A stretch of DNA of 64,000 bases from Ranitomeya imitator (taxonomy: Eukaryota), in the NCBI RefSeq assembly GCF_032444005.1, contig NC_091291.1, positions 32,240,001-32,304,000 of the forward strand, given 5' to 3'. Position 1 is the stretch's first letter. Each line of letters opens with the position of its first letter. Position numbers and translations under genes: made by a program. A model generated the notes under the pieces. The model was given only the letters and a program-made list of their open reading frames with translations, was not told where the DNA came from and searched no databases. Shown here piece by piece: positions 6,779-57,600 of the stretch.

Positions 6779-8206
6779 CTAGATGGTGGCCCGATTCTAA
6801 CGCATCGGGTATTCTAGAATATGCATGTCCACGTAGTATATTGCCCAGCCACGTAGTATATTGCACAGCCACGTAGTATATTGCCCAGCCACGTAGTATA
6901 TTGCCCAGCCACGTAGTATATTGCCCAGTCACGTAGTATATTGCCCAGTCACATAGTATATTGCCCAGTCACGTATATTGCCCAGTCACGTAGTATATTG
7001 CTAAGTCAAGTAGTATATTGCCCAGCCACGTAGTATATTGCCCAGCCACGTAGTATATTGCCCAGTCACGTAGTATATTGCCCAGTCACGTAGTATATTG
7101 CCCAGTCACGTAGTATATTGCCCAGTCACGTAGTATATTGCCCAGTCACGTAGTATATTGCCCAGCCACGTAGTATATTGCCCAGTCACATGGTATATTG
7201 CCCAGCCACGTAGTATATTGCCCAGCCACATAGTATATTGCCCAGCGTCGTAGTATATTGCCCAGCCACGTAGTATATTGTCCAGTTACGTAGTATATTG
7301 CACAGCGACATAGTATACAGCACAGAGCCACGTAGTATATTGCCCAGCCATGTAGCATATTGGCCAGTCAGGTAGTATATTGCCCAGCTACGTAGTATAT
7401 TGCCCAGCCATGTATGTCACAGGTTAAAAAATAAAAATATACTCACCTTCCGAGGGCCCCTTGTAGTTCGGTCACATGACCGTGACATCATGGCAGGTCA
7501 TTCTCGCGCAGGCGCACAGGACCTGTGATGACGTCGCAGTCACATGACCGTGACGTCACGGCAGGTCGTTCTCGTGCAGGTGCGCAGGCATTGTGTTGAC
7601 GTCACGGTCACGTGACCGTGACGTCATGGCAGGTCCTTCTCACGCAGGAGCGCAGGGCCTGTGATGACGTCGCGGTCACATGACTGTGACGTCATGGCAG
7701 GTCCTTCTCGCGCAGGCACGCAGGACCTGTGATGACGTCGTGGTCACATGACCATGACGTCATGGCAGGTCCTTCTCCCATACCATTCTTGGCACCGGAA
7801 CCTGCCAGAGGTCACCGGAGCGTCGCGAAAGGTGAGTATATAATGATTTGTTATTTTTTAAATTATTTTTAACATTAGATGTTTTTACTATTGACGCTGC
7901 ATAGGCAGCATCAATAGTAAAAACTTGGTCACACAGGGTTAATAGCGGCGGTAACGGAGTGAGTTACCCGCGGCATAACGCTGTCCGTTACCGCTGGCAT
8001 TAACCCTGTGTGAGCGGTGACTGCGTGGAGTATGGAGGGACTAATCGGACTGTGGCCGTCGCTGATTGTTCGCGGCAGCCATGACAGATAGCTGGCGAGA
8101 CCAATCAGCGATTTGGATTCCATGACAGACAGAGGCCGCGACCAATGAATATCCGTGACAGAAAGACAGACAGACGGAAGTGACCCTCAGACAATTATAT
8201 AGTAGT
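6779..8206 (-). mobile_element. Non-autonomous Helitron carrying 20-bp and about 67-bp tandem repeats
   Basis: 3' end on the minus strand: A|CTAG at 6778-6782 followed by hairpin CCCGAT-N8-ATCGGG. The 5' end near 8206 resembles that of the copies at 34050 and 60561. Internal CACGTAGTATATTGCCCAGC array at 6830-7410. Confidence 0.8.
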
Positions 8207-12210: not shown

Positions 12211-12929
12211 TTAAGTGTCTGGTTCATGTAGGAAAATGGGCTCACAAGACGTGTTTCTCTTCAAGAACTGCAATGAGAAATCATATCTATCCCCTTATAT
12301 GGATACATTTTGGTTAATGATTTTTAAATGATTTTTGTCATTTTTTTCGTCACGATGTACATTTTTACCATAAGTGTGTTTTTTGTTTGAAAAGATTGAA
12401 AAAGATCAACATTTTCCAACTTCTACCTATTTGACAGTGAAAAGTGAACAGCATTATGATGCCACACGGATAGCATCAATGTATCTATAAAAAAGCTGGA
12501 CACGTGAGCATGCCCACAGACTATAATGAGTACTTGTTTATAATGGACAGAACACTGAGAATATTGGATGAATGAAAATGATCTAATATTTCTTTATCTT
12601 ATACTCGTCGATTACAGGCTGTTAATAGCCAACAGCTATATTCACAATTTTACAGAATAAATAGCAGTAATTTCTGACTCAGCGCCTTGAGGTTTTAGAT
12701 TATTGATACTTAGAATAGGCCAGTATTATCAGATCAGTGGGACTCTTCACACTCCATAATGATCAGCACAAGTGCTGTTAGAATGAGTCACGGCCCCTGT
12801 GCAAACACTACAACAAGTGTCAAACTGGGGTGACAAGGGCCCACCAGTAACATTGACTTTGGGGGGGCCACTTTTCACCTGCATGCAAATATTATGCTAC
12901 CTTCGTTCACAAATTTACCGATTCACAGC

Positions 12930-14870
12930 TGGGATAGAAAGTGGTCAGGACATACAGAGCATCTCAGCTATGATAGATAGGTGTCAGACCACGCAGAGCA
13001 TCACAGCTATGATAGATAGGTGTCAGACCACGCAGAGCACCTCAGCTATGATAGAAAGGTGTCAGACCATGCAGAGCATCGCAGCTATGATAGAAAGGTG
13101 TCAGACCATGCAGAGCATCACAGCTATGATAGAAATGTGTCAGACCATGCAGAGCATCTCAGCTATGATAGAAAGGTGTCAGACCATGGAGAGCATCACA
13201 GCTATGATAGAAAGGTGTCAGACCATGCAGAGCATCACAGCTATGATAGAAAGGTGTCAGACCATGCAGAGTATCACAGCTATGATAGGTGTCAGACCAC
13301 ACAGAGTATCACAGCTATGATAGATAGTGTCAGACCACGCAGAGCATCACAGCTATGATAGAAAGGTGTCAGACCATGGAGAGCATCACAGCTATGATAG
13401 AAAGGTGTCAGACCATGCAGAGCATCTCAGCTATGATAGAAAGGTGTCAGACCATGGAGAGCATCACAGCTATGATAGAAAGGTGTCAGACCATGCAGAG
13501 CATCACAGCTATGATAGAAAGGTGTCAGACCATGCAGAGTATCACAGCTATGATAGAAAGGTGTCAGACCACGCAGAGTATCACAGCTATGACAGATAGT
13601 GTCAGACCACGCAGAGCATCACAGCTATGATAGATAGGTGTCAGACCACGCAGAGCATCGCAGCTATGATAGATAGGTGTCAGACCATGCAGAGCATCGC
13701 AGCTATGATAGAAAGGTGTCAGACCATGGAGAGCATCACAGCTATGATAGAAAGGTGTCAGACCATGCAGAGCATCTCAGCTATGATAGAAAGGTGTCAG
13801 ACCATGGAGAGCATCACAGCTATGATAGAAAGGTGTCAGACCATGCAGAGCATCACAGCTATGATAGAAAGGTGTCAGACCATGCAGAGTATCACAGCTA
13901 TGATAGGTGTCAGACCACGCAGAGTATCACAGCTATGATAGATAGTGTCAGACCACGCAGAGCATCACAGCTATGATAGAAAGGTGTCAGACCATGGAGA
14001 GCATCACAGCTATGATAGAAAGGTGTCAGACCATGCAGAGCATCTCAGCTATGATAGAAAGGTGTCAGACCATGGAGAGCATCACAGCTATGATAGAAAG
14101 GTGTCAGACCATGCAGAGCATCACAGCTATGATAGAAAGGTGTCAGACCATGCACAGCATCGCAGCTATGATAGATATGTGTCAGACCACGCAGAGCATC
14201 ACAGCTATGATAGATAGGTGTCAGACCATGCAGAGCATCGCACCTATGCTAGATAGGTGTCAGACCATGCAGAGCATCGCAGCTATGATAGAAAAGTGTC
14301 AGACCATGGAGAGCATCACAGCTATGATAGATAGGTGTCAGACCACGCAGAGCATCACAGCTATGATAGAAAGGTGTCAGACCATGCAGAGCATCACAGC
14401 TATGATAGAAAGGTGTCAGACCACGCAGAGTATCACAGCTATGATAGAAAGGTGTCAGACCATGCAGAGCATCGCACCTATGATAGAAAGGTGTCAGACC
14501 ATGCAGAGCATCGCACCTATGATAGAAAGGTGTCAGACCATGCAGAGCATCGCACCTATGATAGAAAGGTGTCAGACCATGCAAAGCATCTCAGCTATAA
14601 TGGAAACGTGTCAGACCATGGAGAGCATCACAGCTATGATAGATAGGTGTCAGACCATGCAGAGCATCACAGCTATGATAGAAAGGTGTCAGACCATGCA
14701 GAGCATCGCAGCTATGATAGATCACTGTCAGATTATTCAGGGCATCACAACTATGATAGAAAGGTGTCAGACCATGTAGAGAATCGCAGCTATGATAGAT
14801 CAGTATCAGACCATGCAGAGCATCGCACCTATGATAGATAGGTGTCAGACCATGCAGAGCATCGCAGCTT
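12930..14870. repeat. 39-bp minisatellite (about 49 units)
   Basis: Unit AGAGCATCACAGCTATGATAGAAAGGTGTCAGACCATGC, with occasional 35-bp units; a degenerate relative lies at about 6410-6600. Confidence 0.95.
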
Positions 14871-15225
14871 GATGTGTGTGAGGCTGCCTAGCTGGGGGCT
14901 GATACAAGGAGGAGATCTGGTCTGACGAGTCACGTTTTTTTTAATCATGCGTATGGCCGGTGTGTCACTCATCTGAAGAGATGCACTATGAAGGCAAGCC
15001 GGCGGAGGCCGTGAGATGGTGCGACGTCCTGCTGGGAATCCTCAGGTCCTGGTATCACGTGGATGTGACACGTATCAGCTGCCTAATCATGGCAGCGCCT
15101 CTTACAGCAGGACAAGGCCCCCGCCACAGATGAGATCAAGATGATCACTTGTCTCTAAAGTCACCACATCTCATTTGGGAGTTTCCTGAGGCGGCTGGAC
15201 ACTGATTCAGGAAACGCTGGCTTTG

Positions 15226-15818: not shown

Positions 15819-27490
<11,672 letters not shown>

Positions 27491-27839: not shown

Positions 27840-28417
27840 TATTTTACTGCTGAGGACATGGATGAACTCCTGACAGCAGTAAGACATACAATGGAAGTCG
27901 AGGAAGAAGAGACAATGTGAACAGTCCAAGATCAAATGTTTGGAGGAGTGAAAAAAAGAAAAATTTTTTATTTCTGGTTCATGACAATATCCAGAGTTTG
28001 ATTATAGATTAATAGGAGTTCCCAGAAAAGCATTTGTGTATTGAGGGCGTAATAAAAGGAATATTTCCGTTAGAAGAAGAGATGGCTATGACTTGGTCTG
28101 AAATTCCCAAGATTGATATCCAGGCTTCTAAAGTGGCTAGATAAAAAAAAAACCTCTTCTATTTGAGGATTCTTCACAACTTAAAGACCCAATGAATCGG
28201 AAGATGAATAGCCTTTTGGGGAAAACGTGGGAAGCGTCAATGGCCTACCTCCACATACCCATCTTTCTGAACCACCAAATATTCCTCTGATTCACAATCC
28301 AACATTCCCACTTTTAGTTTACCACTCTGCCAATCGGACTGACCACTGCACCCAAGAGTTTCACAAAGCTCATGGCTGCAGTTATCGCCATCCTGTTTGC
28401 CAGGGGGATAAGTCTTC
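27840..28417 (+). pseudogene. Old DIRS relic: gag-like and RT fragments
   Basis: Broken frames read TAEDMDELLTAVRHTMEVEEE, DQMFGGVKKRK, WSEIPKID and EDSSQLKDPMNRK, similar to ORF1 of the adjacent young element; then LPIGLTTAP and FTKLMAAVIAILFARGI (RT motif B region). Confidence 0.75.
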
Positions 28418-28905
28418 TTTTACTCTTCGTCACGACAGCACCCCACATGAGAGAGAGGGATCCGCCCATAGGAACAGGAAACCTACAGAATAAAAGGAGG
28501 CGGTCCCCTCTCCTCCTCAGTTTAGGTTTCCTGTTCCTATGGGAATCCCAGGACGTACCTACAGAAGATCCCTGGGCCATGCACCCGCCTGCGTCGGTCT
28601 CTGTAAGGAACGGCAGGGGCTGCGGTTCCAGTAGCAGCGGCGGGGGAGCCACTGTGTACAGCCTCCCCCCTCGTCTGATCGATAGCCATGGTCCGGGTCC
28701 GGTCACCGCTGGTCCGCCCGGCTCCATGAGGGCGCGCGCGCTCAAGCGGCCGGCTAAATAAAGCAGCCGCCGCATGGAGGAATGAGCGGCGCGTCTGACC
28801 CGGAAGTCGCTGGAGCACTTCCGGGTTCGGGCCGGGGAGGCAGGAGATTTGGCGCCATATTTAAAAAGCTACAGCGCTACTGTCGGCCGGTGTGTGGATG
28901 TGAGT

Positions 28906-30369
28906 ATGGCTTCACCGGCCGACGAAACGCACCTTGTGGTACCAGAGCGCTCTCCTAGTAAGGAGAAAAGCGCCAGGAGCAGCATTAAAGAGGGTGGTCG
29001 TCAGCAGCGATCTTCCACTAGGCAAAAAGATCCCTCAAAGAATCCGCCTCCAGATCCGGTACCTGTCAGCTTCTCTGGGTGAGTGTAAAGACTTCTCTAC
29101 CTATATGCTGATGTATGTTCCTCCTATGTCCCCTTCCTTCAGTCCAGGAAAAAAGCGCACAAGTCCAAGCACAAACAATGTGCTTTATGTATACAGCCCC
29201 TTCCAGACTCCTATATGAAGAGGTTATGCTCAGATTGCATCATACTGACCTTACGTCAAGAAAACATTATGACTCCATCTGACGTTAGAGCCATGATTCG
29301 AGAAGAGATGCAGGGACTGTCACAGGCTAGTATCCCTAGTTCCCACCAACCTAGCAGATCCCCATCTCCGGAAAACCCAGAATCAGAGGAGGTGCATAAG
29401 TCCTCAGATGAGTCGGAAACTCGGCCGAGTTCATCCGAAGATGAGGGGGGGCTGTGTCTGCCTAACAGCAGCGTGGACAACCTGGTGAAAGCAGTCAGAA
29501 ACACGATGGGGTGCCCTGATGAGAAAGGGAAAAAATCAGCTCAGGACATCATGTTCGCGGGGTTAGGACAAAGGAAGCGCAGATCCTTTCCCGTTGTCGC
29601 AACTGTTAAAGAATTAATTAAAAAAGAGTGGGACAAACAGAGCGCCAGAGGTTTTCTACCATCTTCCTCTAAAAGGCGATATCCCTTTAGCGACGAGGAG
29701 CTGAATACTTGGTCGAAAGTGCCAAAAGTGGACGCAGCCGTAGCCTCAACCTCAAAACAGTCAGTCTTGCCTGTAGAGGATTCAGGGATGCTAACGGATC
29801 CGTTGGACCGTAAAGCAGAGGCCCTGCTTAAAAAATCTTGGGAGGCCAATACAGGGGCATTCCGACCAGCCATCTCTGCTACCTGTACGGCGAGATCTCT
29901 GCTGGTTTGGATGGAACAACTGGAGGAGCAGATCAGAGGTAGAACTGCAAGAGACTCCATTCTACCAAAGATCCCTCTGATGAAGGAGGCTGTAGCATTC
30001 CTGGCAGACGCCTCAGTAGATTCGCTACGCCTAGCAGCCAGGTCAGCCGGCTTAACAAACACAGCCCGGCGAGCACTCTGGTTGAAGAACTGGAAAGGGG
30101 ACGCACAGGCAAAGGCAAAGCTTTGTGCGCTACCCTGCCAGGGTGAGTTCCTTTTCGGGAAGACTCTGGATGAGATCTTAAAGAAAGCAGGAGAACGGAA
30201 GAAAGGTTTTCCTAATCAGTATCTTCCGTCTTAGAGGAGAGCATTCAGAAGACGACCCTTTTCCCGGAGGCCGTTTGAGCAAAGGGATCGCTGGGAGGCG
30301 AAAGACCCTAAGCAAAAAGGAGCCCTGTTTACCGGATCTTACAACTCAAAACGTGGCAAGTACCGCTAA
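28906..30369 (+). CDS. DIRS ORF1 (gag-like), with predicted intron 29079-29147 and one in-frame TAG at 30232
   Basis: ATG 28906; in-frame TGA overlaps donor GG|GTGAGT; the frame resumes KKAHKSKHKQCALCIQPLPDSYMKRLCSDC (CxxC-x12-CxxC), runs to TAG 30232-30234, then a basic tail continues to TAA 30367-30369. Confidence 0.75.
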
Positions 30370-32254
30370 CCTGGAAGTAGGCGGTAGATTAAAATTTTTT
30401 CTATCCAAGTGGGAACATATAACATCCAGCCGTTGGATATTGGACATTATAAGAGATGGCCTTAAATTAGAATTTTTTAGAATCCCTTGGGATTCTTTTA
30501 TAATAACATCTCCAAAGGGACAAGAACAACAGGAGGCTCTAGAGTCCGAGATTATTTCTCTCCTATCTAAAAAAGTGTTGGTAGAGGTTCCCCAAGATCA
30601 AAGAGGAAGGGGATTTTACTCCCCTTTGTTTTTGATCAAAAAACCAGATGGTTCATTCAGAACCATCATTAATCTCAAGAAATTAAATTCCTTTCTATAT
30701 AATCGAACTTTTAAAATGGAGTCTATTAGTTCTGCCATCAAGCTCTTGTTTCCTAGGTGTGTCATGGCCGGAATCGACCTAAAAGATGCCTATTATCATC
30801 TTCCCATACATGCCGAACATCAGCAGTACCTAAGGGTAGCAGTCATCCTGGCAGGACAGGTTCGTCACTTTCAATATGTAGCAATGCCCTTTGGGCTTTC
30901 TATGGCTCCCCGCATCTTTACAAAGGTGATCCTGGAAGTGATGGCTCACTTACGCCAGCAGAACACTCTCATAATACCCTACCTGGATGATTTTCTTGTT
31001 ATCGGAAATTCCATATCCCAATGTCAAATGCGGTTATCTAATGCGATCTCATCCTTGCAGGATCTAGGTTGGATCGTGAATTACGAAAAATCCAGGTTGA
31101 ATCCAGACACCATCCAGATATTTCTGGGAATTCAACTAGATTCAGTAAGTCAGAGGAGTTTTCTGCCACAGTCAAAGAGAATAATTATTCAATCAAAGGT
31201 GTCAGAGGCAATATCAAAGCCCTGTATGACCCTGAGGAAGGCCATGTCCTTACTTGGATCACTGTCCTCATGTATACCAGCCGTGCTGTGGGCTCAATAT
31301 CATATCCGTCAATTGCAGTATGAAATATTATCCATTCAAAAGGAAGTACGAAATTTAGAGAGTAAAATCACTCTTTCCAGTGACGTAATTGAATCCCTAA
31401 GCTGGTGGTTAGACATGGATCACCTTTCAGGGGGTGTACCATGGATGATAAATCCCTCCAAAACAATTATCACTGACGCCAGCCCTGTGGGTTGGGGCGC
31501 ACATATGGAAGATAATCTGATCCAAGACACCTGGAATCAGGCGGAGCTGGTGTATTCTTCAAATTGGAAAGAGTTAAAAGCAGTAGAATATGCCCTAAGT
31601 CATTTTCTTCCACAGGTTCAGGGAATGCACGTGAGAGTTCTGTCAGACAATTCCACCGCAGTGGCGTACATAAACCGTCAGGGAGGTACGCGATCAGGAA
31701 CCCTGATGAACGTAGCAGCAAACATCCTCCAGTTGGCAGAGTTTCATCTTCCATCCTTAACAGCCCTGCACATCAAAGGGGCAGAAAACACCAAGGCGGA
31801 CTACCTCAGCCGAAACAGGCTACGACAAGGGGAATGGTCGTTAAACAAGGACATATTCAACATGATAACAAAAGCATGGGGCGTACCCCAAATAGATCTG
31901 TTCGCCACAAGAGACAACAGACAGGTAAAGAGATTTGCTTCCCTGAACCTCATGGATCACCCAGACATGTTGGACTCCCTTCACCATCCTTGGAGCTTCA
32001 GGCTAGCGTACGCCTTCCCTCCAATGTCTCTGATACCTCTAGTGATCAGGAAGATCAGGAGGGACCAAGCCAGAGTAATCCTGATTGCTCCCTTCTGGCC
32101 AAAAAGACCATGGTTCTCGTGTCTCCAAAGCATGTCTCTATGCGATCCATGGATCCTTCCTTTACACAAGGAACTGTTGTCTCAGGGCCCATTTTTCCAC
32201 CCGCAAGTGAAAGGTCTTCACTTGACGGCGTGGAATTTGAGAGGCAGTTGTTAA
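30182..32254 (+). CDS. DIRS ORF2: reverse transcriptase, RNase H and methyltransferase-like domain
   Basis: Stop-free frame: VGGRL, FYSPLFLIKKPDGSFRTIINL, IDLKDAYYH, MPFGLSMAPRIFTK, YLDD; RNase H TDASPVGWGA, WKELKAV, SDNSTAV, NTKADYLSR; MT-like IDLFAT, YAFPP and IAPFWPKRPWF. No ATG before 30716. Confidence 0.95.
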   Translation, partial: RKQENGRKVFLISIFRLRGEHSEDDPFPGGRLSKGIAGRRKTLSKKEPCLPDLTTQNVASTANLEVGGRLKFFLSKWEHITSSRWILDIIRDGLKLEFFRIPWDSFIITSPKGQEQQEALESEIISLLSKKVLVEVPQDQRGRGFYSPLFLIKKPDGSFRTIINLKKLNSFLYNRTFKMESISSAIKLLFPRCVMAGIDLKDAYYHLPIHAEHQQYLRVAVILAGQVRHFQYVAMPFGLSMAPRIFTKVILEVMAHLRQQNTLIIPYLDDFLVIGNSISQCQMRLSNAISSLQDLGWIVNYEKSRLNPDTIQIFLGIQLDSVSQRSFLPQSKRIIIQSKVSEAISKPCMTLRKAMSLLGSLSSCIPAVLWAQYHIRQLQYEILSIQKEVRNLESKITLSSDVIESLSWWLDMDHLSGGVPWMINPSKTIITDASPVGWGAHMEDNLIQDTWNQAELVYSSNWKELKAVEYALSHFLPQVQGMHVRVLSDNSTAVAYINRQGGTRSGTLMNVAANILQLAEFHLPSLTALHIKGAENTKADYLSRNRLRQGEWSLNKDIFNMITKAWGVPQIDLFATRDNRQVKRFASLNLMDHPDMLDSLHHPWSFRLAYAFPPMSLIPLVIRKIRRDQARVILIAPFWPKRPWFSCLQSMSLCDPWILPLHKELLSQGPFFHPQVKGLHLTAWNLRGSC

Positions 32255-33267
32255 AATCTAGGGGGTTCTCGGAAAAACTAGTTAACACCCTATTGTTGAG
32301 TAGGAAGAGATCTACCACCCTATTATACAGTAGGGTATGGAAGAAGTTCTTAGATTTTCATACAAGACCATTCTCTAAGCAGATTCCGATAGTTCCGATT
32401 CTAGAGTTCCTACAAAAAGGTAGAGAATTAGGGTTATCGGTGAACACCCTAAAGGTTCAAGTCTCAGCTTTAGGAGCCTTGTATGGGGACAACATAGCAG
32501 CCAACAAGTGGGTCTCCAGGTTCATCAAATCCTGTGAACGTTCCAATCCGGTCCATATTCCCCGTCTACCTCCGTGGGATTTGAATTTAGTCTTAGAAGC
32601 CTTAACTGACTCCCCATTTGAGCCACTAGATGCCATACCTCTAAAGGTCCTAACATACAAAGTCGCCTTATTGGTAGCCCTAACCTCAGCTAGAAGGGTT
32701 AGTGACATCCAGGCCCTATCGGCAGACCCACCTTTCTTAATGGTATTTCAGGATAGAATTGTCCTAAAACCTGATCCCTCATACCTCCCTAAGGTAGCAT
32801 CCATCTATCACAGATCTCAGGAGATAATTCTGCCTTCTTTTTTTAATACACCTGTAACCCCAGAACAACATAAGTTGCACACCTTAGATGTCAGAAGAGC
32901 TATCCTGACATATATAGAGAGGTCTCAAACATGGAGGCAGAGTAGGGCTCTGTTTGTCTCCTTTCAGGGCCGCAAGAAAGGATATGGGGTCACAAAGGCT
33001 ACCATTTCTCGATGGATCAGAGAAGCTATTTGTCTAGCCTACACATCAAGGGGCGAAATCCCACCAGTGGGGATTAAAGCGCATTCCACGCGGGCCATGG
33101 CTTCCTCTTGGGCGGAACATGCGGATGTACCGATCCACATGATATGTAAGGCCGCAACCTGGTCCACACCTTCTACCTTTTACAACCATTACAGACTTGA
33201 CCTTTCTGCTTCCTCTGATTTGACCTTTGGTAGAGCTGTTCTTAGTACAGTAATCCCACCCAAATAA
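31564..33267 (+). CDS. DIRS ORF3: tyrosine recombinase
   Basis: Stop-free frame overlapping ORF2 by about 690 nt; catalytic set SARRVSDI (R), AHSTR (HxxR), ATWS (W/H), NHYRLD (Y). First ATG at 31834. Confidence 0.95.
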   Translation: MERVKSSRICPKSFSSTGSGNARESSVRQFHRSGVHKPSGRYAIRNPDERSSKHPPVGRVSSSILNSPAHQRGRKHQGGLPQPKQATTRGMVVKQGHIQHDNKSMGRTPNRSVRHKRQQTGKEICFPEPHGSPRHVGLPSPSLELQASVRLPSNVSDTSSDQEDQEGPSQSNPDCSLLAKKTMVLVSPKHVSMRSMDPSFTQGTVVSGPIFPPASERSSLDGVEFERQLLKSRGFSEKLVNTLLLSRKRSTTLLYSRVWKKFLDFHTRPFSKQIPIVPILEFLQKGRELGLSVNTLKVQVSALGALYGDNIAANKWVSRFIKSCERSNPVHIPRLPPWDLNLVLEALTDSPFEPLDAIPLKVLTYKVALLVALTSARRVSDIQALSADPPFLMVFQDRIVLKPDPSYLPKVASIYHRSQEIILPSFFNTPVTPEQHKLHTLDVRRAILTYIERSQTWRQSRALFVSFQGRKKGYGVTKATISRWIREAICLAYTSRGEIPPVGIKAHSTRAMASSWAEHADVPIHMICKAATWSTPSTFYNHYRLDLSASSDLTFGRAVLSTVIPPK

Positions 33268-34049
33268 TGAATCTCTGAAAATCTCTCATGTGGGGTGCTG
33301 TCGTGACGAAGAGTAAAAATCCGGATTACTTACCGGTAATGCTCTTTTAATGAGTCACGACAGCACCCATGTATTACCCTCCCTAAATTATGCACAGCAC
33401 TTTCCTTTAAGTTCAAAGAAGTAATGGTTGTATAGGGTTAAGAATTTTTATGTTACTGAATAAGAATGAATACTAACACTTTTGCGGTTCCCTTTTTATA
33501 CTCTGTAAACTAAACTGAGGAGGAGAGGGGACCGCCTCCTTTTATTCTGTAGGTTTCCTGTTCCTATGGGCGGATCCCTCTCTCTCATGTGGGGTGCTGT
33601 CGTGACTCATTAAAAGAGCATTATCGGTAAGTAATCCGGATTTTGATCCCTGTTCAGCGTCTAGTCTTGAGAATGTTAGACACAGTTCAAGCAAGTTTGG
33701 TTTTCACTGAAGACAAGAGATCTGCCCATGATTGTGGCATACGTTCTCTCAGATGTCCATCTCCCTGTTCAGTCCATTTCTGATTCAATGTCCTGGGCCA
33801 GATGGTGGCTGTGATTGAAGCCATTCTCTTTAGGGTTCTTCTACACTGCATTCTGCCACCCATTCGTTGATCCTGTTGAGGCGTACATCCAAATCCCCTG
33901 CAAATGGGAATCGGGCGTATGCACCAACAGGGCAATAGACTATAATACGCAGTCTTCTATGTCTGAGTATCCACCTCCAGTACGCCTACATGCCCGAAAA
34001 TGAGGCTTGAGAGAGCACTCGTTCGCTCTGTCAGGATGATTATAGTCTA

Positions 34050-34952
34050 CTAGATGGTGGCCCGATTCTAACGCATCGGGTATTCTAGAATATGCATGTC
34101 CACGTAGTATGTTGCACAGCCCACGTAGTATATTCCCCAACCACATAGTATATTGCCCAGCCACGTAGTATATTGCCCAGTCACGTAGTATATTGCCCAG
34201 TCACGTAGTATATTGCCCAGTCACGTAGTATATTGCCCAGCCACGTAGTATATTGCCCAGCCACGTAGTATATTGCCCAGCCACGTAGTATATTGCCCAG
34301 TGACGTAGTATACAGCACAGAGCCACGTAGTATATTGCCCAGTGACGTAGTATACAACACAGAGCCACATAGTATATTGCACAGCGACGTAGTATACAGC
34401 ACAGAGCCACGTAGTATATTGCCCAGCTACGTAGTATATTGGCCAGTCACGTAGTATATTGCCCAGCCACGTATGTCACAGGTTAAAAGATAAAAAATAA
34501 ACATATACTCACCTTCCGAGGGAGCCCTTGTAGTCATGTCGCCTGTGTGCAGTGCACTCGGGTATTCTAGAACGCATCGGATATCTAACGCATCGAGTAT
34601 TCTAGAATATGCATGTCCCCGTAGTATATGGACAATGATGATTCCAGAATTCGCGGCAGACTGTGCCCGTCGCTGATTGGTCGAGGCAACCTTTATGACA
34701 TCATCGTCGCCATGGCAACCATTATGACATCTACGTCGATACTGTGCCCGTTGCTGATTGGTCGAGGCCTTGTGGCCTCGACCAATCAGAGACGCGGGAT
34801 GTCTGCGTCCTTTATGACATCTTCGTCGCTGTGCCCGTCGCTGATTGGTCGAGGCCTGGCGGCCTCGACCAATCAGACGCGGGTTTCTAGGACAGACAGA
34901 CAGAAAGACAGACAGACAGACGGAAAAACTTTTAGACAATTATATACATAGA
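34050..34952 (-). mobile_element. Non-autonomous Helitron (composite)
   Basis: A|CTAG at 34049-34053 plus the CCCGAT/ATCGGG hairpin; GA|T at 34951-34953 (A|TC on the minus strand); same 20-bp array as the 6779 copy. Confidence 0.85.
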
Positions 34953-37150: not shown

Positions 37151-39689
37151 AATTAGAGGGAAGTTTGTAAAGCTTTGTTCAATCCCAAACTTTTACAGAA
37201 CACCTCTGCCCCTCTTACCCAGGCTGATCAAGAAGATCAAAGCAGAATGCGTTCCAGTCATTACCATTGCTCTGGACTGACCCAGAAGATCCTGGTACAC
37301 TGTAGTAGACAACCTTCTAGCAGATGCCCTGTGGAAGCTCGTAGATCATCCAGATCTGCTTTCCCAGGGCACCATCTTCTACCAGAATTCAGTCTCTTAA
37401 TTTAACGGCATGGCTGTTGAAGCCGCAGTGTTAAGTCTCAAATTTTTTTTCATCAGGTCATCCATATGAAGGGTGGCATAAGGCCAGTTGCTGTGAACCA
37501 GACCCAAGTTCTCTTTGCCCTGAAACCCCTCTTATAAACAGGATTCTGGCTTCAGTGTGATGTGGTGTGGAATGGTTTCTGTGTACACTTGTAGTTCAGG
37601 AGTCCTTGTTACCTCCCTGTCAATGAGACCAGACTCAGATGCACACATAACAGGAGACCTTAGGGTTACATTTTTCCATGCCATTCGGATACATGCGGGT
37701 GCGGCACACAGAGTGAGACAGAATCCCCTCCAGGTGATGTTCCCGTTGTCCAATGTACTACCAGTCCTGGACTCCATTGTGCCCGACCTGTCCCTGCTTT
37801 AAAAGCTCCTCTTGGTACCGGGGACCTTGTATCCAGCATAGCATCTTCCCTGAGACCCATCATCTTTCCCTCTCGCTGGGACCTGACCAGCATGTTCCTC
37901 ACAGGGCAAACAGAGACTTGGCACCTTAGGTCCAACACTGCCCCGGGATCTGCACAAGACTTCAGATGATTCCTCATACTGTTTGGAAACTTGGCACTGA
38001 CAGGACTTCCTTCGCTGCTGCTGTATCCACTACCTTGGAACCTGTTGAACATTGTCACTGTTGAGCACTTCCTCAGACTGACCTCTCTTCCACTAACACC
38101 TGACTATCATCTGGACTCTAAGCCTCTCCAGAACTCCTGAACTAGGAAGTGATTCCTCTCTTTATCAGATCTAACCCCTTCCCACTATGTGGGCTAATCC
38201 CAAACTATTTACCTTACCTTACCCAAACTGCTGCAACTATATCCATATGCCTTGTAAAGGACGGCCTTGAGGTTAAAACTCCGGGAAAACAGAGACACAC
38301 ATCGGCCATTAAGAATAAAACTTAAAACTCTTCATCAAAACATTTTACCATAAACATTCACATCAAATATTATTTTCTCTTGAACAAATGTATTACTCTA
38401 CTCCTCTACACATACATGACAGCTCCCTTCAGACATTCAGATTCCTTGTTTGTAATTCCGGAGAGTCATCATAGAGGTCTCCCTGCCTCTGAGACTACTA
38501 TTCCTCATTGGTTCCTCGTTGGACTCGCTCTATTATTCTGGAAGTGTATCGGGCATAAGACAGAGCACCACCACTCCGGTTTACTGTTAACTTCACCCGA
38601 GCAGTGGGGGCTTCCTGGTTTATCAAGGCTACTACCTGGTCTTCTCTACATATCTTCTCCAAGTTCTACAGTTCTACAGTCCACACCTTTTCCATGGCAG
38701 ATGCAAGCCTGGGTAGAAAGGAGCTGCAGTTGCCTGGGTTCTGACCTGAGAGATTTGCCTCATTTTTTCTGGTTCAATCTTCTCCCACTCTCGGGACTGG
38801 TTTTGGACATCCTATGGTTCCCCAATGAAGCAATAAAGAAAAGAATTTGGGTACTCATAAAATCCCTTACTCTGAGCCTTCACTAGGGGACCCAGCACCA
38901 TCCCCTTGTGCCAATTTCGGGACAGCGTTGTAATTAATCTAAGTTGCTTCTACTTCTTTCTAACAGATTGGCTTGGTTCCAGTTGGTGGGTGGAACCTGC
39001 TGAAGGTAATTTAACTTTTTTTTGCCAAGTGTCAGCCTCCTACTGGCAGCAGTATACACCCTGTGTCCCCCAGTGAAGGCTCCAAGAAAGATTTTATGGT
39101 GAGTACCCAAAAATCATCTTCTTGCTTGTTTGTCTGGTGATGGTCAGCCTGGTGCGACTGCATAATTATTGGGAAATAAGTAACGCTAGGGACAAGGTTA
39201 CATGGCAAAGAATAGGTTAGATTGAGGTAACAATCGGGGCATCTGATATGGAGTGTATCATTTAAGCTCCTATTTGGTTTTATATCCTTATGCAATAGGG
39301 TTAGTCCAAAGCTGATGACCCCTTTCTAATCATACTGGTCATGTTTCTGTCTGACAGCTCTTTCCCAGCCATTCCATACACATGCACACTTGGCTCGACC
39401 ATCCATTTCATGTACGGTATTTAGTCATTAGTTCGTTTTTAGTTATATTAATTGGCCAGTGACGTATATGACTTTCCTTGCTCTTCAGAACATTGAGCAC
39501 TGTGCAGAATCACTGAGACGAGTCTGTAAGAATGAGGTAGTGACGTGTAAAGCACTTTCATTTATTGGGAAGGTGTACATGTTCCATGCATACAATCAAT
39601 AGGTCCGCTATCAATATATTTATGGTAATAGATTTAATTAGGATTTTGGGGAATTTGCAAGTACAGATTCTATTGCTTTGCCCGTAGCG

Positions 39690-48309: not shown

Positions 48310-49640
48310 TAAAGGGAGCTGTGACATCACCTATTGCGAATGGTGGATCCTGTGTTATCCACTGTATATAGAGATGTTATCAGTCATTGTACAGGAGGAG
48401 GAGGTGAGCTGTGACAACACTTATTGTGAATGGTGGATCCTGTGTTATGTACTGTATATAGAGGTGTTATCAGTCATTGTACAGGAGGAGGAGGTGAGCT
48501 GTGACATCACCTATTGCGAATGGTGGATCCTGTGTTATCCACTGTATATAGAGATGTTATCAGTCATTGTACAGGAGGAGGAGGTGAGCTGTGACATCAC
48601 CTATTGTGAATGGTGGATCCTGTGTTATCTACTGTATATAGAGGTGTTATCAGTCATTGTACAGGAGGAGGTGAGCTGTGATATCATCTATTGTGAATGG
48701 TGGATCATGTGTTATCTGCTGTATATAGAGGTGTTATCAGACATTGTACAGGAGGAGGAGGTGAGCTGTGACATCACCTATTGTGAATGGTGGATCCTAT
48801 GTTATCTACTGTACATAGAGGTGTTATCAGTCATTGTACAGGAGGAGGAGGTGAGCTGTGACATCACCTATTGTGAATGGTGGATCCTGTGTTATCCACT
48901 GTATATAGAGGTGTTATCAGTCATTGTACAGGAGGTGAGCTGTGATATCATCTATTGTGAATGGTGGATCATGTGTTATCTGCTGTATATAGAGGTGTTA
49001 TCAGACATTGTACAGGAGGAGGAGGTGAGCTGTGACATCACCTATTGTGAATGGTGGATCCTATGTTATCTACTGTACATAGAGGTGTTATCAGTCATTG
49101 TACAGGAGGAGGAGGTGAGCTGTGACATCACCTATTGGGAATGGTGGATCCTGTGTTATCCACTGTATATAGAGGTGTTATCAGTTATTGTACAGGAGGG
49201 GGAGGAGGTGAGCTGTGACATCACCTGAATGGTGGATCCCGTGTTATCTACTGTATATAGAGGTGTTATCAGTCATTGTACAGGAGGAGGAGGTGAGCTG
49301 TGACATCACCTATTGTGAATGGTGGATCGGATCCTGTGTTATGTACTGTATATAGAGGTGTTATCAGTCATTGTACAGGAGGAGGAGGTGAGCTGTGACA
49401 TCACCTATTGTGAATGGTGGATCCTATGTTATCTACTGTATATAGAGGTGTTATCAGTCATTGTACAGGAGGAGGAGGTGAGCTGTGACATCACCTATTG
49501 TGAATGGTGGAGCCTATGTTATGTACTGTATATAGAGGTGTTATCAATCATTTTACAGGAGGAGGAGGTGAGCTGTGACATCACCTATTGTGAATGGTGG
49601 ATCCTGTGTTATCTACTTTATATAGAGGTGTTATCAGTTA
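48310..49640. repeat. 90-bp minisatellite (about 15 units)
   Basis: Unit GAGCTGTGACATCACCTATTGTGAATGGTGGATCCTGTGTTATCTACTGTATATAGAGGTGTTATCAGTCATTGTACAGGAGGAGGAGGT, with GAG-number variation. Confidence 0.95.
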
Positions 49641-50132
49641 TAGTATAAGTCTAACATTTAGCCTAGTAGCCAGGGTGAAAATTGCAAGATTTTGTAATGC
49701 AGATCGTGGTATTGAAAACTGAAAAGACATGATCAAAAATTTTAAAAGATACATTTGACATATAAATCTTATTTACACAATAGGTTTGCAGCCCCTTCAA
49801 TATTTATATGTGTGGCTTGTCCAGAGGTACAGTATATCAAGGTTTTCCAGCACCCGCGGAAGTTTGGCTCCCCACCCAATCACATATGCGATTTGCACGC
49901 TTACAGTCACATGCTGATGAGCTGCTCTTCCTAATTCTCTCAATGTTCAGTGAAAAACTGAGATAAGTAGGAAGAGAAGCTCGTTTTTACGTGACCGTAA
50001 GTATGAAAATCACATATGAGTGGAGCGACCATATGATGACTGCCTGCTGGAATCTGCTAGCAGAGCTGAATCCTGACATTGAGGACATTACACACTGCTA
50101 GGATTGGCTACATGGCTTCATTTTATAATTAA

Positions 50133-54642: not shown

Positions 54643-57600
54643 TCACACCGCAACTGGCCTCTCACTACCATATGTCTCGTATTCTGTTTCATACATCTTG
54701 GGAACAGCCATGATCTCTGGCAATGGTCCCTGTCTTGGTTTGGTCCAGGGGCATTCTAGGGGGAAGTAGACATCTTGTGACCTCTTGACGTCCAGTGGCC
54801 ACTGGTAGCTTTCCTGTGCCAAGGACTTTAGGCCTGTGTGTGGGACTGATTGTGCACGTGGTGGTATCCGTGGCAGTTTAGTGGCAATGGGAAACTGAAG
54901 GGTGTCCCGCATTGGAGGTGGTCGTCGAAGCATTGGTTGACTCTCCTTCGGTAGAGGGTTTTCTTTCAGACCATGTCCCCAGGCTTTCGGGTAATCCTCC
55001 GCCTGCCAGTAAGTCAGAATATCTTTTTTCGGATAGCCTTCAAGTTCTTTCCTGGTTTGGAAAAATAGAAGACCATAAAAAACAATACAACTTAACAAAA
55101 ATAATGGTTGTCATTGGGACTAACGTAAAGGGCATTGGAGCTGATCACTTCCTACACAGTCTTCTAATTCGTACATCTCAGCCCTTTTTACTTAAGACTC
55201 CCTCCAGGATATAACCAATGGAGTTCGGAGGCTGTAGACAACAGCTGAGCTACGATGCATCCGTAACCCCCAACCAAAATGAATGGGAGGTCTGGACCTT
55301 CAGTGGTCTATTCTCCGGTGGTCAGAGCCTTGACAGAGCCATACCTAAAAGGCAGAGATGGGAATAAACCTATAACCAAAAACCAGGCCCTTAGCGATGC
55401 TTTGGGGTCTAACGGGGGTATATTGGGTGGAGAGAAAGTTGTTACAACATGGTTCCTTTGGGGCTCTCTGCCACTTAAAGAAGATGCATCAAGTTTGGAA
55501 GTTATCCCCTATCTGTGTCCAAACTCTGGGAACCGGACCTGCACTGATTCCAAGAACCGGTGGTCTGAAAAGCCCCTTTGTGAATGGAGTGGTGGTCGCT
55601 CATGTACAACTTCGCTCACTACATTCTTAATGGGAGTGCAGAAGATCAGCCGATATTTGCATTAGGGCCCTGGAGATTTATGTTACATTTTCGGGGGACC
55701 TACATCAACCTGGTCAACAAGAACGAGCCGAGATGTACGATCATCTCCACGCTTGTCCATAGCTGTGAAACTGATTGACGGCATATCGCTAGCGCATGCC
55801 CATTATGGCATGCGTTGGTGATGCACCCGATAATAGGGGTTAATGGCAGCGTTAACGGACTGCCGTAAAGCAGTGTGACCCCAGCCTAAGGGTGACGTTG
55901 TTTCTGGGAAATAATTTCCACCTTTTTCTTTAATATCAGATAACTTCTATCTCGCTTGTGGTTGTTGGACTTACGCTGTAAACGCACGGAAGTCCCGAGC
56001 TGTAGTGGATGCATATATGTCGTTCAAGCTCAAGACCCCCTTGTCTCTTACGTAGAACGGTTCTCCAGATACAGCCTTGTTTTCTGTCGTTGCCACTATC
56101 GCCTAAATTGCAACAGACTTTGTAAAGATATACTCCGGAAATTTCAAAATATTTCATAAATAGCTGATGAAAATATGGAGCAATCATAGATCGGTGTCAA
56201 TTGCTGCTCGTCCTTTTTCATTTTAAAGGACATCTGACAGCACAAAATGACTTTTCAAACCTAGCGCGGAAGCTTAGTGCACCCTTGGTGGGGATGAGCA
56301 GCTCAGTGCACCCTTGGTGGGGGTGAGCAGCTCAGTGCACCCTTGGTGGGGATGAGCAGCTCAGTGCACTCTTGGTGGGGATGAGCTGCTCAGTGCACCC
56401 TTGGTGGGGATGAGCAGCTCAGTGCACCCTTGGCGGGGGTGAGCAGCTTAGTGCACCCTTGGTGGGGATGAGCAGCTCAGTGCACCCTTGGTGGGGGTGA
56501 GCAGCTCAGTGCACCCTTGGTGAGGACGAGCAGCTTAGTGCACCCTTGGTGGGGATGAGCAGCTCAGTGCACCCTTGGTGGGGATGAGCAGCTCAGTGCA
56601 CCCTTGGTGGGGATGAGCAGCTCAGTGCACCCTTGGTGGGGATGAGCAGCTCAGTGCACCCTTGGTGGGGGTGAGCAGCTTAGTGCACCCTTGGTGGGGA
56701 TGAGCAGCTCAGTGCACCCTTGGTGAGGATCAGCAGCTTAGTGCACCCTTGGTGGGGATGAGCAGCTCAGTGCACCCTTGGTAGGGATGAGCAGCTCAGT
56801 GCACCCTTGGTGGGGATGAGCAGCTCAGTGCACCCTTGGTGGGGGTGAGCAGCTTAGTGCACCCTTGGTGGGGATGAGCAGCTCAGTGCACCCTTGGTGG
56901 GGATGAGCAGCTCAGTGCACCCTTGGTGGGGGTGAGCAGCTCAGTGCACCCTTGGTGAGGACGAGCAGCTTAGTGCACCCTTGGTGGGGATGAGCAGCTC
57001 AGTGCACCCTTGGTGGGGGTGAGCAGCTCAGTGCACCCTTGGTGGGGATGAGCAGCTCAGTGCACCTTCTCACCTACTTGTTTTCTATTTATCTCTGACC
57101 TTTGGCAACGCTGACTATACAATAAACCAAGAAAGGGAGGACAGAGAGGGAAAATATGTACAATGGAAGGTGCACTGAACTACTCGGCCACACCAAGGGT
57201 TCACCGAGAGCTTGTGCTTGGTTTGAACAGTCATGTTGTGCTGATAGACTGCGTTTGTTGATGGATACAATTAACAGAAGCCACAAAGCCCAATGTCAAC
57301 AACGACAAACCTGTGACGGTCCTCTATTTATGTGATTTTCCAGAGAGAAGGGTTGAGGTCCTGCATGGAAATTAGTGATGGAGGGGTGAGCTGGACGCCC
57401 CTTGAATTCTGCTTTCATCTCACTGCTTTGGTGTTTTGGATCCAGTGGAGTCCTCCATGGTCTTAGTTTCAACTGCAAAGTTAATGTTAATGAAAATATT
57501 TAGACCACATATGTTTACCTCCTAGAGTCAAATTCATAGATCCAAACTATGTCAGGGTTGTATGAGATTAGAAACAAAAAATGATCTACTGTTTTCCAGA

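Follow-up and report, generated by a model that had tools for sequence, protein, structure and literature searches.

DIRS1-like retrotransposons described from Xenopus (Gazolla et al., PMC9210276) and from other eukaryotes (Piednoel et al., PMC3266345) share inverted terminal repeats (ITRs) of ~100-120 bp, an internal complementary region (ICR) with an AAA junction, TTT ends, a first open reading frame (ORF1) bearing a LAP2alpha domain, a frame for reverse transcriptase (RT), RNase H and methyltransferase (MT), and an overlapping ORF for a tyrosine recombinase (YR). The texts of these reports do not say how pol, which is without a usable start codon, or the overlapping YR frame is translated; introns and splicing are never mentioned in their main texts, where the ORFs are treated as unspliced. 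Replication through single-stranded cDNA, with the ends restored on the ICR, has been shown for Dictyostelium DIRS-1 in a paper whose mentions of splicing concern a marker intron (PMC7192593). Here we describe a complete DIRS1-like YR retrotransposon of the dendrobatid type, located at 28418-33644 of a 64,000-nt stretch of the Ranitomeya imitator genome (NC_091291.1, positions 32,240,001 to 32,304,000, forward strand; hereafter the window, numbered from its first letter), and the splicing by which its three frames may be expressed.

Retroviruses express env from the 5′ leader by subgenomic splicing, with one donor, alternative acceptors and an unspliced genome, and introns have been reported in some fungal YR retrotransposons. 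The frog element differs from retroviruses in that its shared part would be nearly all of Gag rather than a short leader, and in that it has no env, protease or integrase. In BARE1, Drosophila copia and Ogre, splicing sets the balance between Gag and Pol while unspliced RNA is kept for replication, and Ogre resembles the frog DIRS plan in splicing between ORFs (PMC3735527). However, splicing in BARE1 and copia removes or closes pol, whereas in the frog element it would open pol and a third frame, and all three are integrase elements with direct long terminal repeats, unlike frog DIRS (PMC3735527). The LAP2alpha exons of mammalian TMPO and ZNF451 (506 and 497 residues) are cases of a DIRS gag used as a spliced-in exon; they are domesticated host exons, and an origin of their acceptors from the element is not stated in the text of that study (Abascal et al., PMC4495291). 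Our search of full-text literature, mostly without subscription papers, found no paper on splicing-based expression in vertebrate DIRS. The element is of a known kind, probably with an undescribed mode of expression.

We propose, with a probability of roughly 0.55, that this element family expresses Gag, Pol and recombinase by splicing from two donors. Removal of intron 1 with retention of intron 2 would give Gag with an Arg-rich tail (464 codons where a copy lacks the 30232 stop), splicing from 30142 to 30237 would give Gag-Pol (1061 codons), and splicing from 30142 to 31616 would give Gag-YR (939 codons, including a 197-codon pol-overlapping linker before 32208). We infer that these joins are made in cells, that they yield the three products, and that unspliced RNA serves as the genome for reverse transcription. 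Read directly were the anatomy, frames and phases of the element, the ranks of its splice sites, a stop-free YR overlap and the columns at which public gene models are joined. The relevant features are as follows.

28906..29078, + strand: coding leader exon, 57 codons plus 2 nt (173 nt), ending at donor D1 in phase 2.
29079..29147, + strand: predicted intron 1, 69 nt, with two in-frame stops, a pyrimidine tract and CTGAT 37 nt before 29148.
29148..30369, + strand: gag exon with a CxxC-x12-CxxC finger, a LAP2alpha domain and an Arg-rich tail, from profile and structure matches.
30143..30236, + strand: predicted intron 2, 94 nt, with its donor after 30142 and its acceptor before 30237; removal joins gag and pol in frame.
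30182..32254, + strand: pol frame with RT, RNase H and a Dam-like methyltransferase, from Pfam matches.
31516..33267, + strand: YR frame, 583 codons, with the recombinase core at its 3′ end, from the reading frame and homologues.
31602..31616, + strand: predicted YR acceptor, exon start 31616, phase 1 for YR and phase 0 for pol.

The frame opened by ATG 28906 runs for 58 codons to a TGA (29080-29082) that overlaps the donor GG/GTGAGT, where the slash marks the exon end at 29078. This ATG is the only one in frame from 28860 to the first CxxC of gag, which has no in-frame ATG without the leader. The first-pass annotation had read the leader as feeding gag, pol and YR through three acceptors, and its coordinates and phases were confirmed: the frame of ATG 28906 with its in-frame TGA and phase-2 end at 29078; the 69-nt intron with CTGAT and the finger downstream; the entries at 29148, 30220 and 32208, each after an AG and each in phase 2 for the gag, pol and YR frames, respectively; the lack of a pol ATG before 30716, inside RT; and the YR ATG at 31834.

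To place these sites among all candidates, we scored every GT (217) and AG (362) between 28880 and 33300 against an approximate splice matrix and ranked them. The donor at 30142 ranked first and that at 29078 second; among acceptors, 31616 ranked second, 29143 fourth and 29148 sixth. The phases of 29078-29148, 30142-30237 and 30142-31616 close without adjustment. A high acceptor score alone proves nothing, since strong acceptors (scoring 4.8-9.1) are present in all 13 distant loci that were scored, and the per-site chance of such sites is not small; the case therefore rests on recurrence across families.

Of 150 gag relatives, 60 have the finger within the first 200 residues. In P0123, P0132 and P0161, unrelated upstream sequences, one of which reads as complement-like, are joined 11 residues before the first Cys, which is the 29148 column, and several leaders of 56-57 residues are likewise joined there. 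Dendrobatid RefSeq gag models carry low-complexity leaders of 56-70 residues, and the leader of this copy has weak similarity to those of P0124, P0130 and P0427 (shuffle p 0.002-0.008; below 0.05 in three of ten leaders tested). The leader of P0427, a model from D. tinctorius, ends like this one, and the one canonical way to read its join puts it in phase 2, so the notion that the phase-2 leader of this copy must be an assembly error was rejected, although such an error is possible. With a donor ranked 2 of 217, an acceptor ranked 6 of 362 and relatives' gene models joined at the same place, the leader-to-gag intron proposed by the first-pass annotation stands beyond chance, and 29079-29147 is probably spliced. 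Just upstream, at 28898-28905, an ATG is followed directly by a TGA that overlaps a third GTGAGT (donor rank 3); splicing of this donor to 29148 would create a start codon at the junction and yield a leaderless Gag.

The best donor of the element lies near the end of gag, after 30142 (D2, phase 1). Of 52 proteins that run from gag through a CxG motif to the start of RT, 48 depart from gag exactly at the 30142 column and pick up the pol frame 46-49 residues ahead of RT, compared with 46 for 30237 in this copy. This count is inflated by fetched cluster members and becomes 16 of 20 among cluster representatives. The 48 models come from R. imitator, R. variabilis and D. tinctorius and form about 10 groups at 60% linker identity, an ungapped measure that may oversplit. 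Their junction residue is Gly, or Glu in three, matching the phase-1 prediction. In five unspliced readings of the pol frame (P0286, P0294, P0298, P0302 and P0309), T, I or L is followed by G at this column, which fits YAG/G. A branch-like CTAAT (30212-30216) lies 22 nt upstream of 30237, a normal branch distance. The first ATG of pol, at 30716, corresponds to pol residue 179 and falls inside the RVT_1 match (residues 152-318). Taken together, the ranks, phases and shared columns make the Gag-Pol splice 30142-30237 likely, at a lower confidence than the leader intron.

The stop that interrupts gag at 30232-30234 is specific to this copy. At 30234 all four sequencing runs have C, and P0121, a model from R. 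variabilis, carries Tyr in place of the stop; acceptor 30237 ranks 18 with the window base and 4 with the base read in the runs. Because the window base at 30234 makes both a stop and a nearer AG, this copy is apparently defective in making the Gag tail and may also be impaired in the pol splice.

The YR frame overlaps pol in its first 231 codons and has no stop there (31516-32207; 0 stops at 55 at-risk sites, 12.3 expected). Downstream of the predicted acceptor, 31616-32207 has 0 stops at 46 at-risk sites (11.3 expected, P 3e-7), leaving 197 open codons upstream of 32208, while over RT the same frame has 17 stops, against 18.0 expected from codon use. Sixteen long relatives, hand-picked from frogs, snakes and lizards, also keep the frame open across this stretch, several of them from the RNase H start or earlier. 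Being stop-free upstream of 32208, the YR frame is probably entered earlier. The 31616 column is entered by 10 models, comprising eight of 41 in the pol frame and two in the YR frame. P0316, intact, and P0307, joined at this column, are an isoform pair of one locus in the pol frame; P0125 and P0258 enter the YR frame here from phase-1 donors. No branch consensus was found within 60 nt of acceptor 31616. These observations point to a Gag-YR splice from 30142 to 31616, to which we give slightly less than even odds.

Two other high-ranking acceptors, 32968 (rank 1) and 31061 (rank 3), were rejected as entry points, the latter because a stop at 31321 ends the YR frame. Several models (P0292, P0294 and P0398) nevertheless begin an exon at the 31061 column, which is also phase 1 for the YR frame and may be an older YR entry.

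Gag and YR share one frame in the frog element, with the RT-overlapping part closed by stops. We compared this arrangement with 91 distant loci obtained by alignment scans (best segments 20-42% identity), of which 23 hold both pol and YR. In six of the 23, a long upstream ORF and YR form one frame split by a single stop, with YR open across pol, and in a seventh (L003) the two are fused with no stop. A Gag-YR product thus has precedent in the anatomy of the group, and a gag-to-YR splice would restore the continuity of the gag-YR frame. These seven loci (L001, L003, L010, L012, L015, L019 and L023), with YR frames of ~890-1020 codons in frame with the upstream ORF, are candidates for stop-codon readthrough.

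Several findings weigh against splicing from two donors. At intron 1, a competing AG (29141-29142; exon start 29143) lies ahead of the one before 29148 and does not match D1 in frame, and in six of 12 distinct relatives the residue at the gag junction is Ala, which suits phase 0 or 1 and not phase 2. Synonymous resampling yields the 30142 donor in 11.5% of cases and the 31616 acceptor in 5.8%. The gag-pol join is seen in dendrobatids only, and four of the 52 proteins continue in genomic gag. At the 31616 column, LPQ stands on both sides of the join in seven of the eight pol-frame entries, so that genomic deletion could mimic some of them, and no model joins the 30142 donor to this column in a YR search that excluded proteins above 616 residues. 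Every supporting join is a computed gene model. RefSeq isoforms usually rest on aligned transcripts; still, gene-prediction software can link two overlapping frames through their best GT-AG pair with no RNA evidence behind it, and some modelled joins within pol remove catalytic parts, so that not every modelled join is functional. The 13 distant loci scored have no consistent splice-site pattern (a pol-extension acceptor ranked 7 or better in five, with mixed phases), and the splicing plan is therefore not general.

Contigs assembled from sequencing runs bear on it as well. Thirteen of 15 run entries hold the stretch, nine of them guessed to be RNA and four of unknown kind, with none recorded as RNA, and we compared one guessed-RNA run from each of four studies as assembled contigs, which drop rare forms. 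Among the 15 joints listed of 22 in the four contig sets, there was no predicted junction, nor any of the three by which the first-pass annotation was to be checked (29078-29148, 29078-30220 and 29078-32208). One contig is unspliced through 28516-30791, across introns 1 and 2, a second through 30129-32221, across 30237 and 31616, and a third, from a related family, through 30090-30354. These contigs argue against spliced forms dominating those runs; they also fit genome-length RNA, nascent RNA or DNA. Over 32553-33600, each of the four runs has related-family contigs, ~13-14% diverged and very deeply covered, that start at 32553; they would reflect a node shared in the assembly graph or a short derivative present in abundance.

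The main rival explanation, which we regard as unlikely, is that the leader intron alone is spliced, with Pol made by +1 ribosomal frameshifting where gag and pol overlap, and YR either by a -1 shift out of pol or by translation continuing from a start farther upstream. The frames themselves would allow this, since pol and the gag tail share 62 codons, with pol in the +1 frame, and YR lies in the -1 frame of pol, yet no classic slippery heptamer occurs in the needed frame, and the sole Ty-like match includes this copy's own base at 30234. Gypsy elements usually rely on +1 frameshifting (PMC3735527), the same overlaps occur in distant relatives that lack a consistent acceptor, and the contigs listed were unspliced only; even so, frameshifting leaves the use of one join column in ~10 families unexplained.

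A still less probable alternative is the scheme of the first-pass annotation, in which one leader feeds all three frames, either through 30220 and 32208 in phase 2 or, where the leader of a sister family is in phase 1, through the 30237 and 31616 columns. The phases do fit in this copy. However, 30220 ranks 27, with its AG (30218-30219) 3 nt behind the branch-like A and the CTAAT only 5 nt from 30220; a CAG at this column (30218..30220) is not apparent in several of the five unspliced pol-frame readings; and relatives join at the 30237 column instead. The YR acceptor at 32208, an AAG (32206..32208), ranks 62, and its score was reached in 36% of 5000 synonymous resamplings of the pol codons. 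Among the 53 alignable matches (of 120), the residue at its column is S in 25, G in 12 and another in 16; these residues follow the free choice of a pol Gln codon, so not all relatives can hold a phase-2 AG, which is possible in at most 26 of the 53. Only one of 140 YR-frame proteins, a beetle model, enters near 32208, the column is not kept, and the site is probably a by-product of pol codons; a splice there would also leave the stop-free overlap unexplained. The phase-1 version draws on P0292, which joins a 51-residue leader directly to pol at the 30237 column in phase 1, a join that would be out of frame for the phase-2 leader of this copy, and on the Ala at the gag junction of six relatives, which would suit a phase-1 leader. 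In addition, one contig differs from the window by seven gap letters in 28516-30791, and the phase of this copy may differ from that of its family. P0292 is, however, a single-member cluster whose leader end matches this one read one base shifted; it may be a frameshifted copy or belong to a family with a phase-1 leader, and the leader of P0427 is in phase 2.

Least probable is that no regulated splicing occurs, the sites being chance products of codons and pol and YR arising from internal starts on shorter transcripts: despite the purine at -3 and G at +4 of ATG 31834, the many models that start there, a per-site chance of 6-12% and the unspliced contigs, this ATG was rejected as a conserved YR start, since only eight of the 16 long relatives have Met there and the others have Val or Ala. 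Also against this reading, no stop interrupts the YR frame ahead of that codon (16 sites, P 0.009), the first pol ATG lies inside RT, and the first CxxC of gag is without an in-frame ATG in the absence of the leader.

The first-pass annotation had the right phenomenon and one right intron, but the donor and acceptors it assigned to pol and YR are likely wrong. Splicing-based expression and the leader-gag intron are supported, whereas a single phase-2 leader feeding 30220 and 32208 is not; the 29148 and 30142/30237 columns recur in dendrobatid protein models, whereas 30220 and 32208 are not kept. It had missed donor 30142, acceptors 30237 and 31616 and the copy-specific gag stop.

The remaining anatomy identifies the element as DIRS1-like.

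28418..28528, + strand: left terminus and left ITR, starting with TTT.
28858..28867, + strand: candidate TATA-like motif ahead of the leader, read in the sequence.
33282..33368, + strand: ICR, inverted-repeat pairs I3 and I5.
33507..33644, + strand: right ITR and extension, ending with TTT; inverted-repeat pairs I1 and I3.

The ITR arms (28429-28528 and 33507-33606) are 100 nt long and 99% complementary, and the left end (28418-28454) pairs with the complementary 33282-33318. The two halves of the ICR, 33282-33318 and 33316-33368, share an AAA at 33316-33318 that matches the terminal TTT. Alongside these ITRs and an ICR with a 3-nt junction, the element has a gag-like ORF, RT, RNase H and MT, and a YR instead of an integrase. 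The LAP2alpha domain of gag is matched by PF11560 (E 1.7e-18) and by PDB 2v0x (E 1.6e-18). Pfam matches above the cut-off in pol are PF00078 (E 2.2e-17) and PF17917 (E 8.2e-6), while the methyltransferase-like domain is a weak match below it (PF05869, E 0.005). The YR frame likewise matches PF00589 weakly, below the cut-off (E 0.026), with the core from YR-frame residue 250, outside the overlap; it has 380 homologues at E<=1e-20, some named Tyr recombinase domain proteins, and the recombinase is 97% identical to an R. imitator model and 88% identical to one from R. variabilis. Membership of Ngaro or PAT, which have split direct repeats, was rejected, as the terminal repeats are inverted and the direct repeats are 21-26 nt parts of the ITR and ICR.

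No second young copy of the element was found within the 64-kb window. An older DIRS copy has left degenerate pieces of gag and RT (28064-28389; tblastn 40-44%) that adjoin the left terminus on its upstream side, and the element may have inserted into or beside that copy. On the same strand, 37203-38726 holds a decayed DIRS copy of another family, with the pol end and pieces of YR. Large minisatellite arrays occupy 1-1574, 6829-7414, 12923-14873, 16211-17719, 34100-34473, 48316-49645 and 56271-57066; a minisatellite with a 20-nt unit occurs at two places and is flanked at 34067-34627 by a 44-nt direct repeat. Single-protein scans of viral and metagenome contigs found no loci, and a search for the leader peptide among longer proteins gave seven candidates, none of which scored. 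Five public gene models (P0132, P0161, P0427, P0057 and P0016) fuse host-gene names or exons to DIRS frames, and are either annotation hazards or cases of exon capture through the splice sites of the element.

DIRS elements are abundant in amphibian, reptile and fish genomes. A wider reading, possible but rather doubtful, is that frog DIRS replaced translational recoding by a choice among alternative 3′ splice sites, with a single Gag trunk that splicing links to its own basic tail, Pol or the recombinase. The YR/pol overlap would then be a translated linker, the remnant of an ancestral Gag-YR frame whose RT-overlapping part turned into an intron, and the same gag acceptor may have let mammalian genes capture LAP2alpha exons. 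Three exact junctions make the question of translation testable. If expression by splicing from two donors is true, the conserved open YR overlap would be explained, the balance of Gag, Pol and YR would have a mechanism, frog DIRS would add a case of a retrotransposon whose genome RNA has to retain introns, and many frog gene models labelled 'uncharacterized' would be transposon isoforms.

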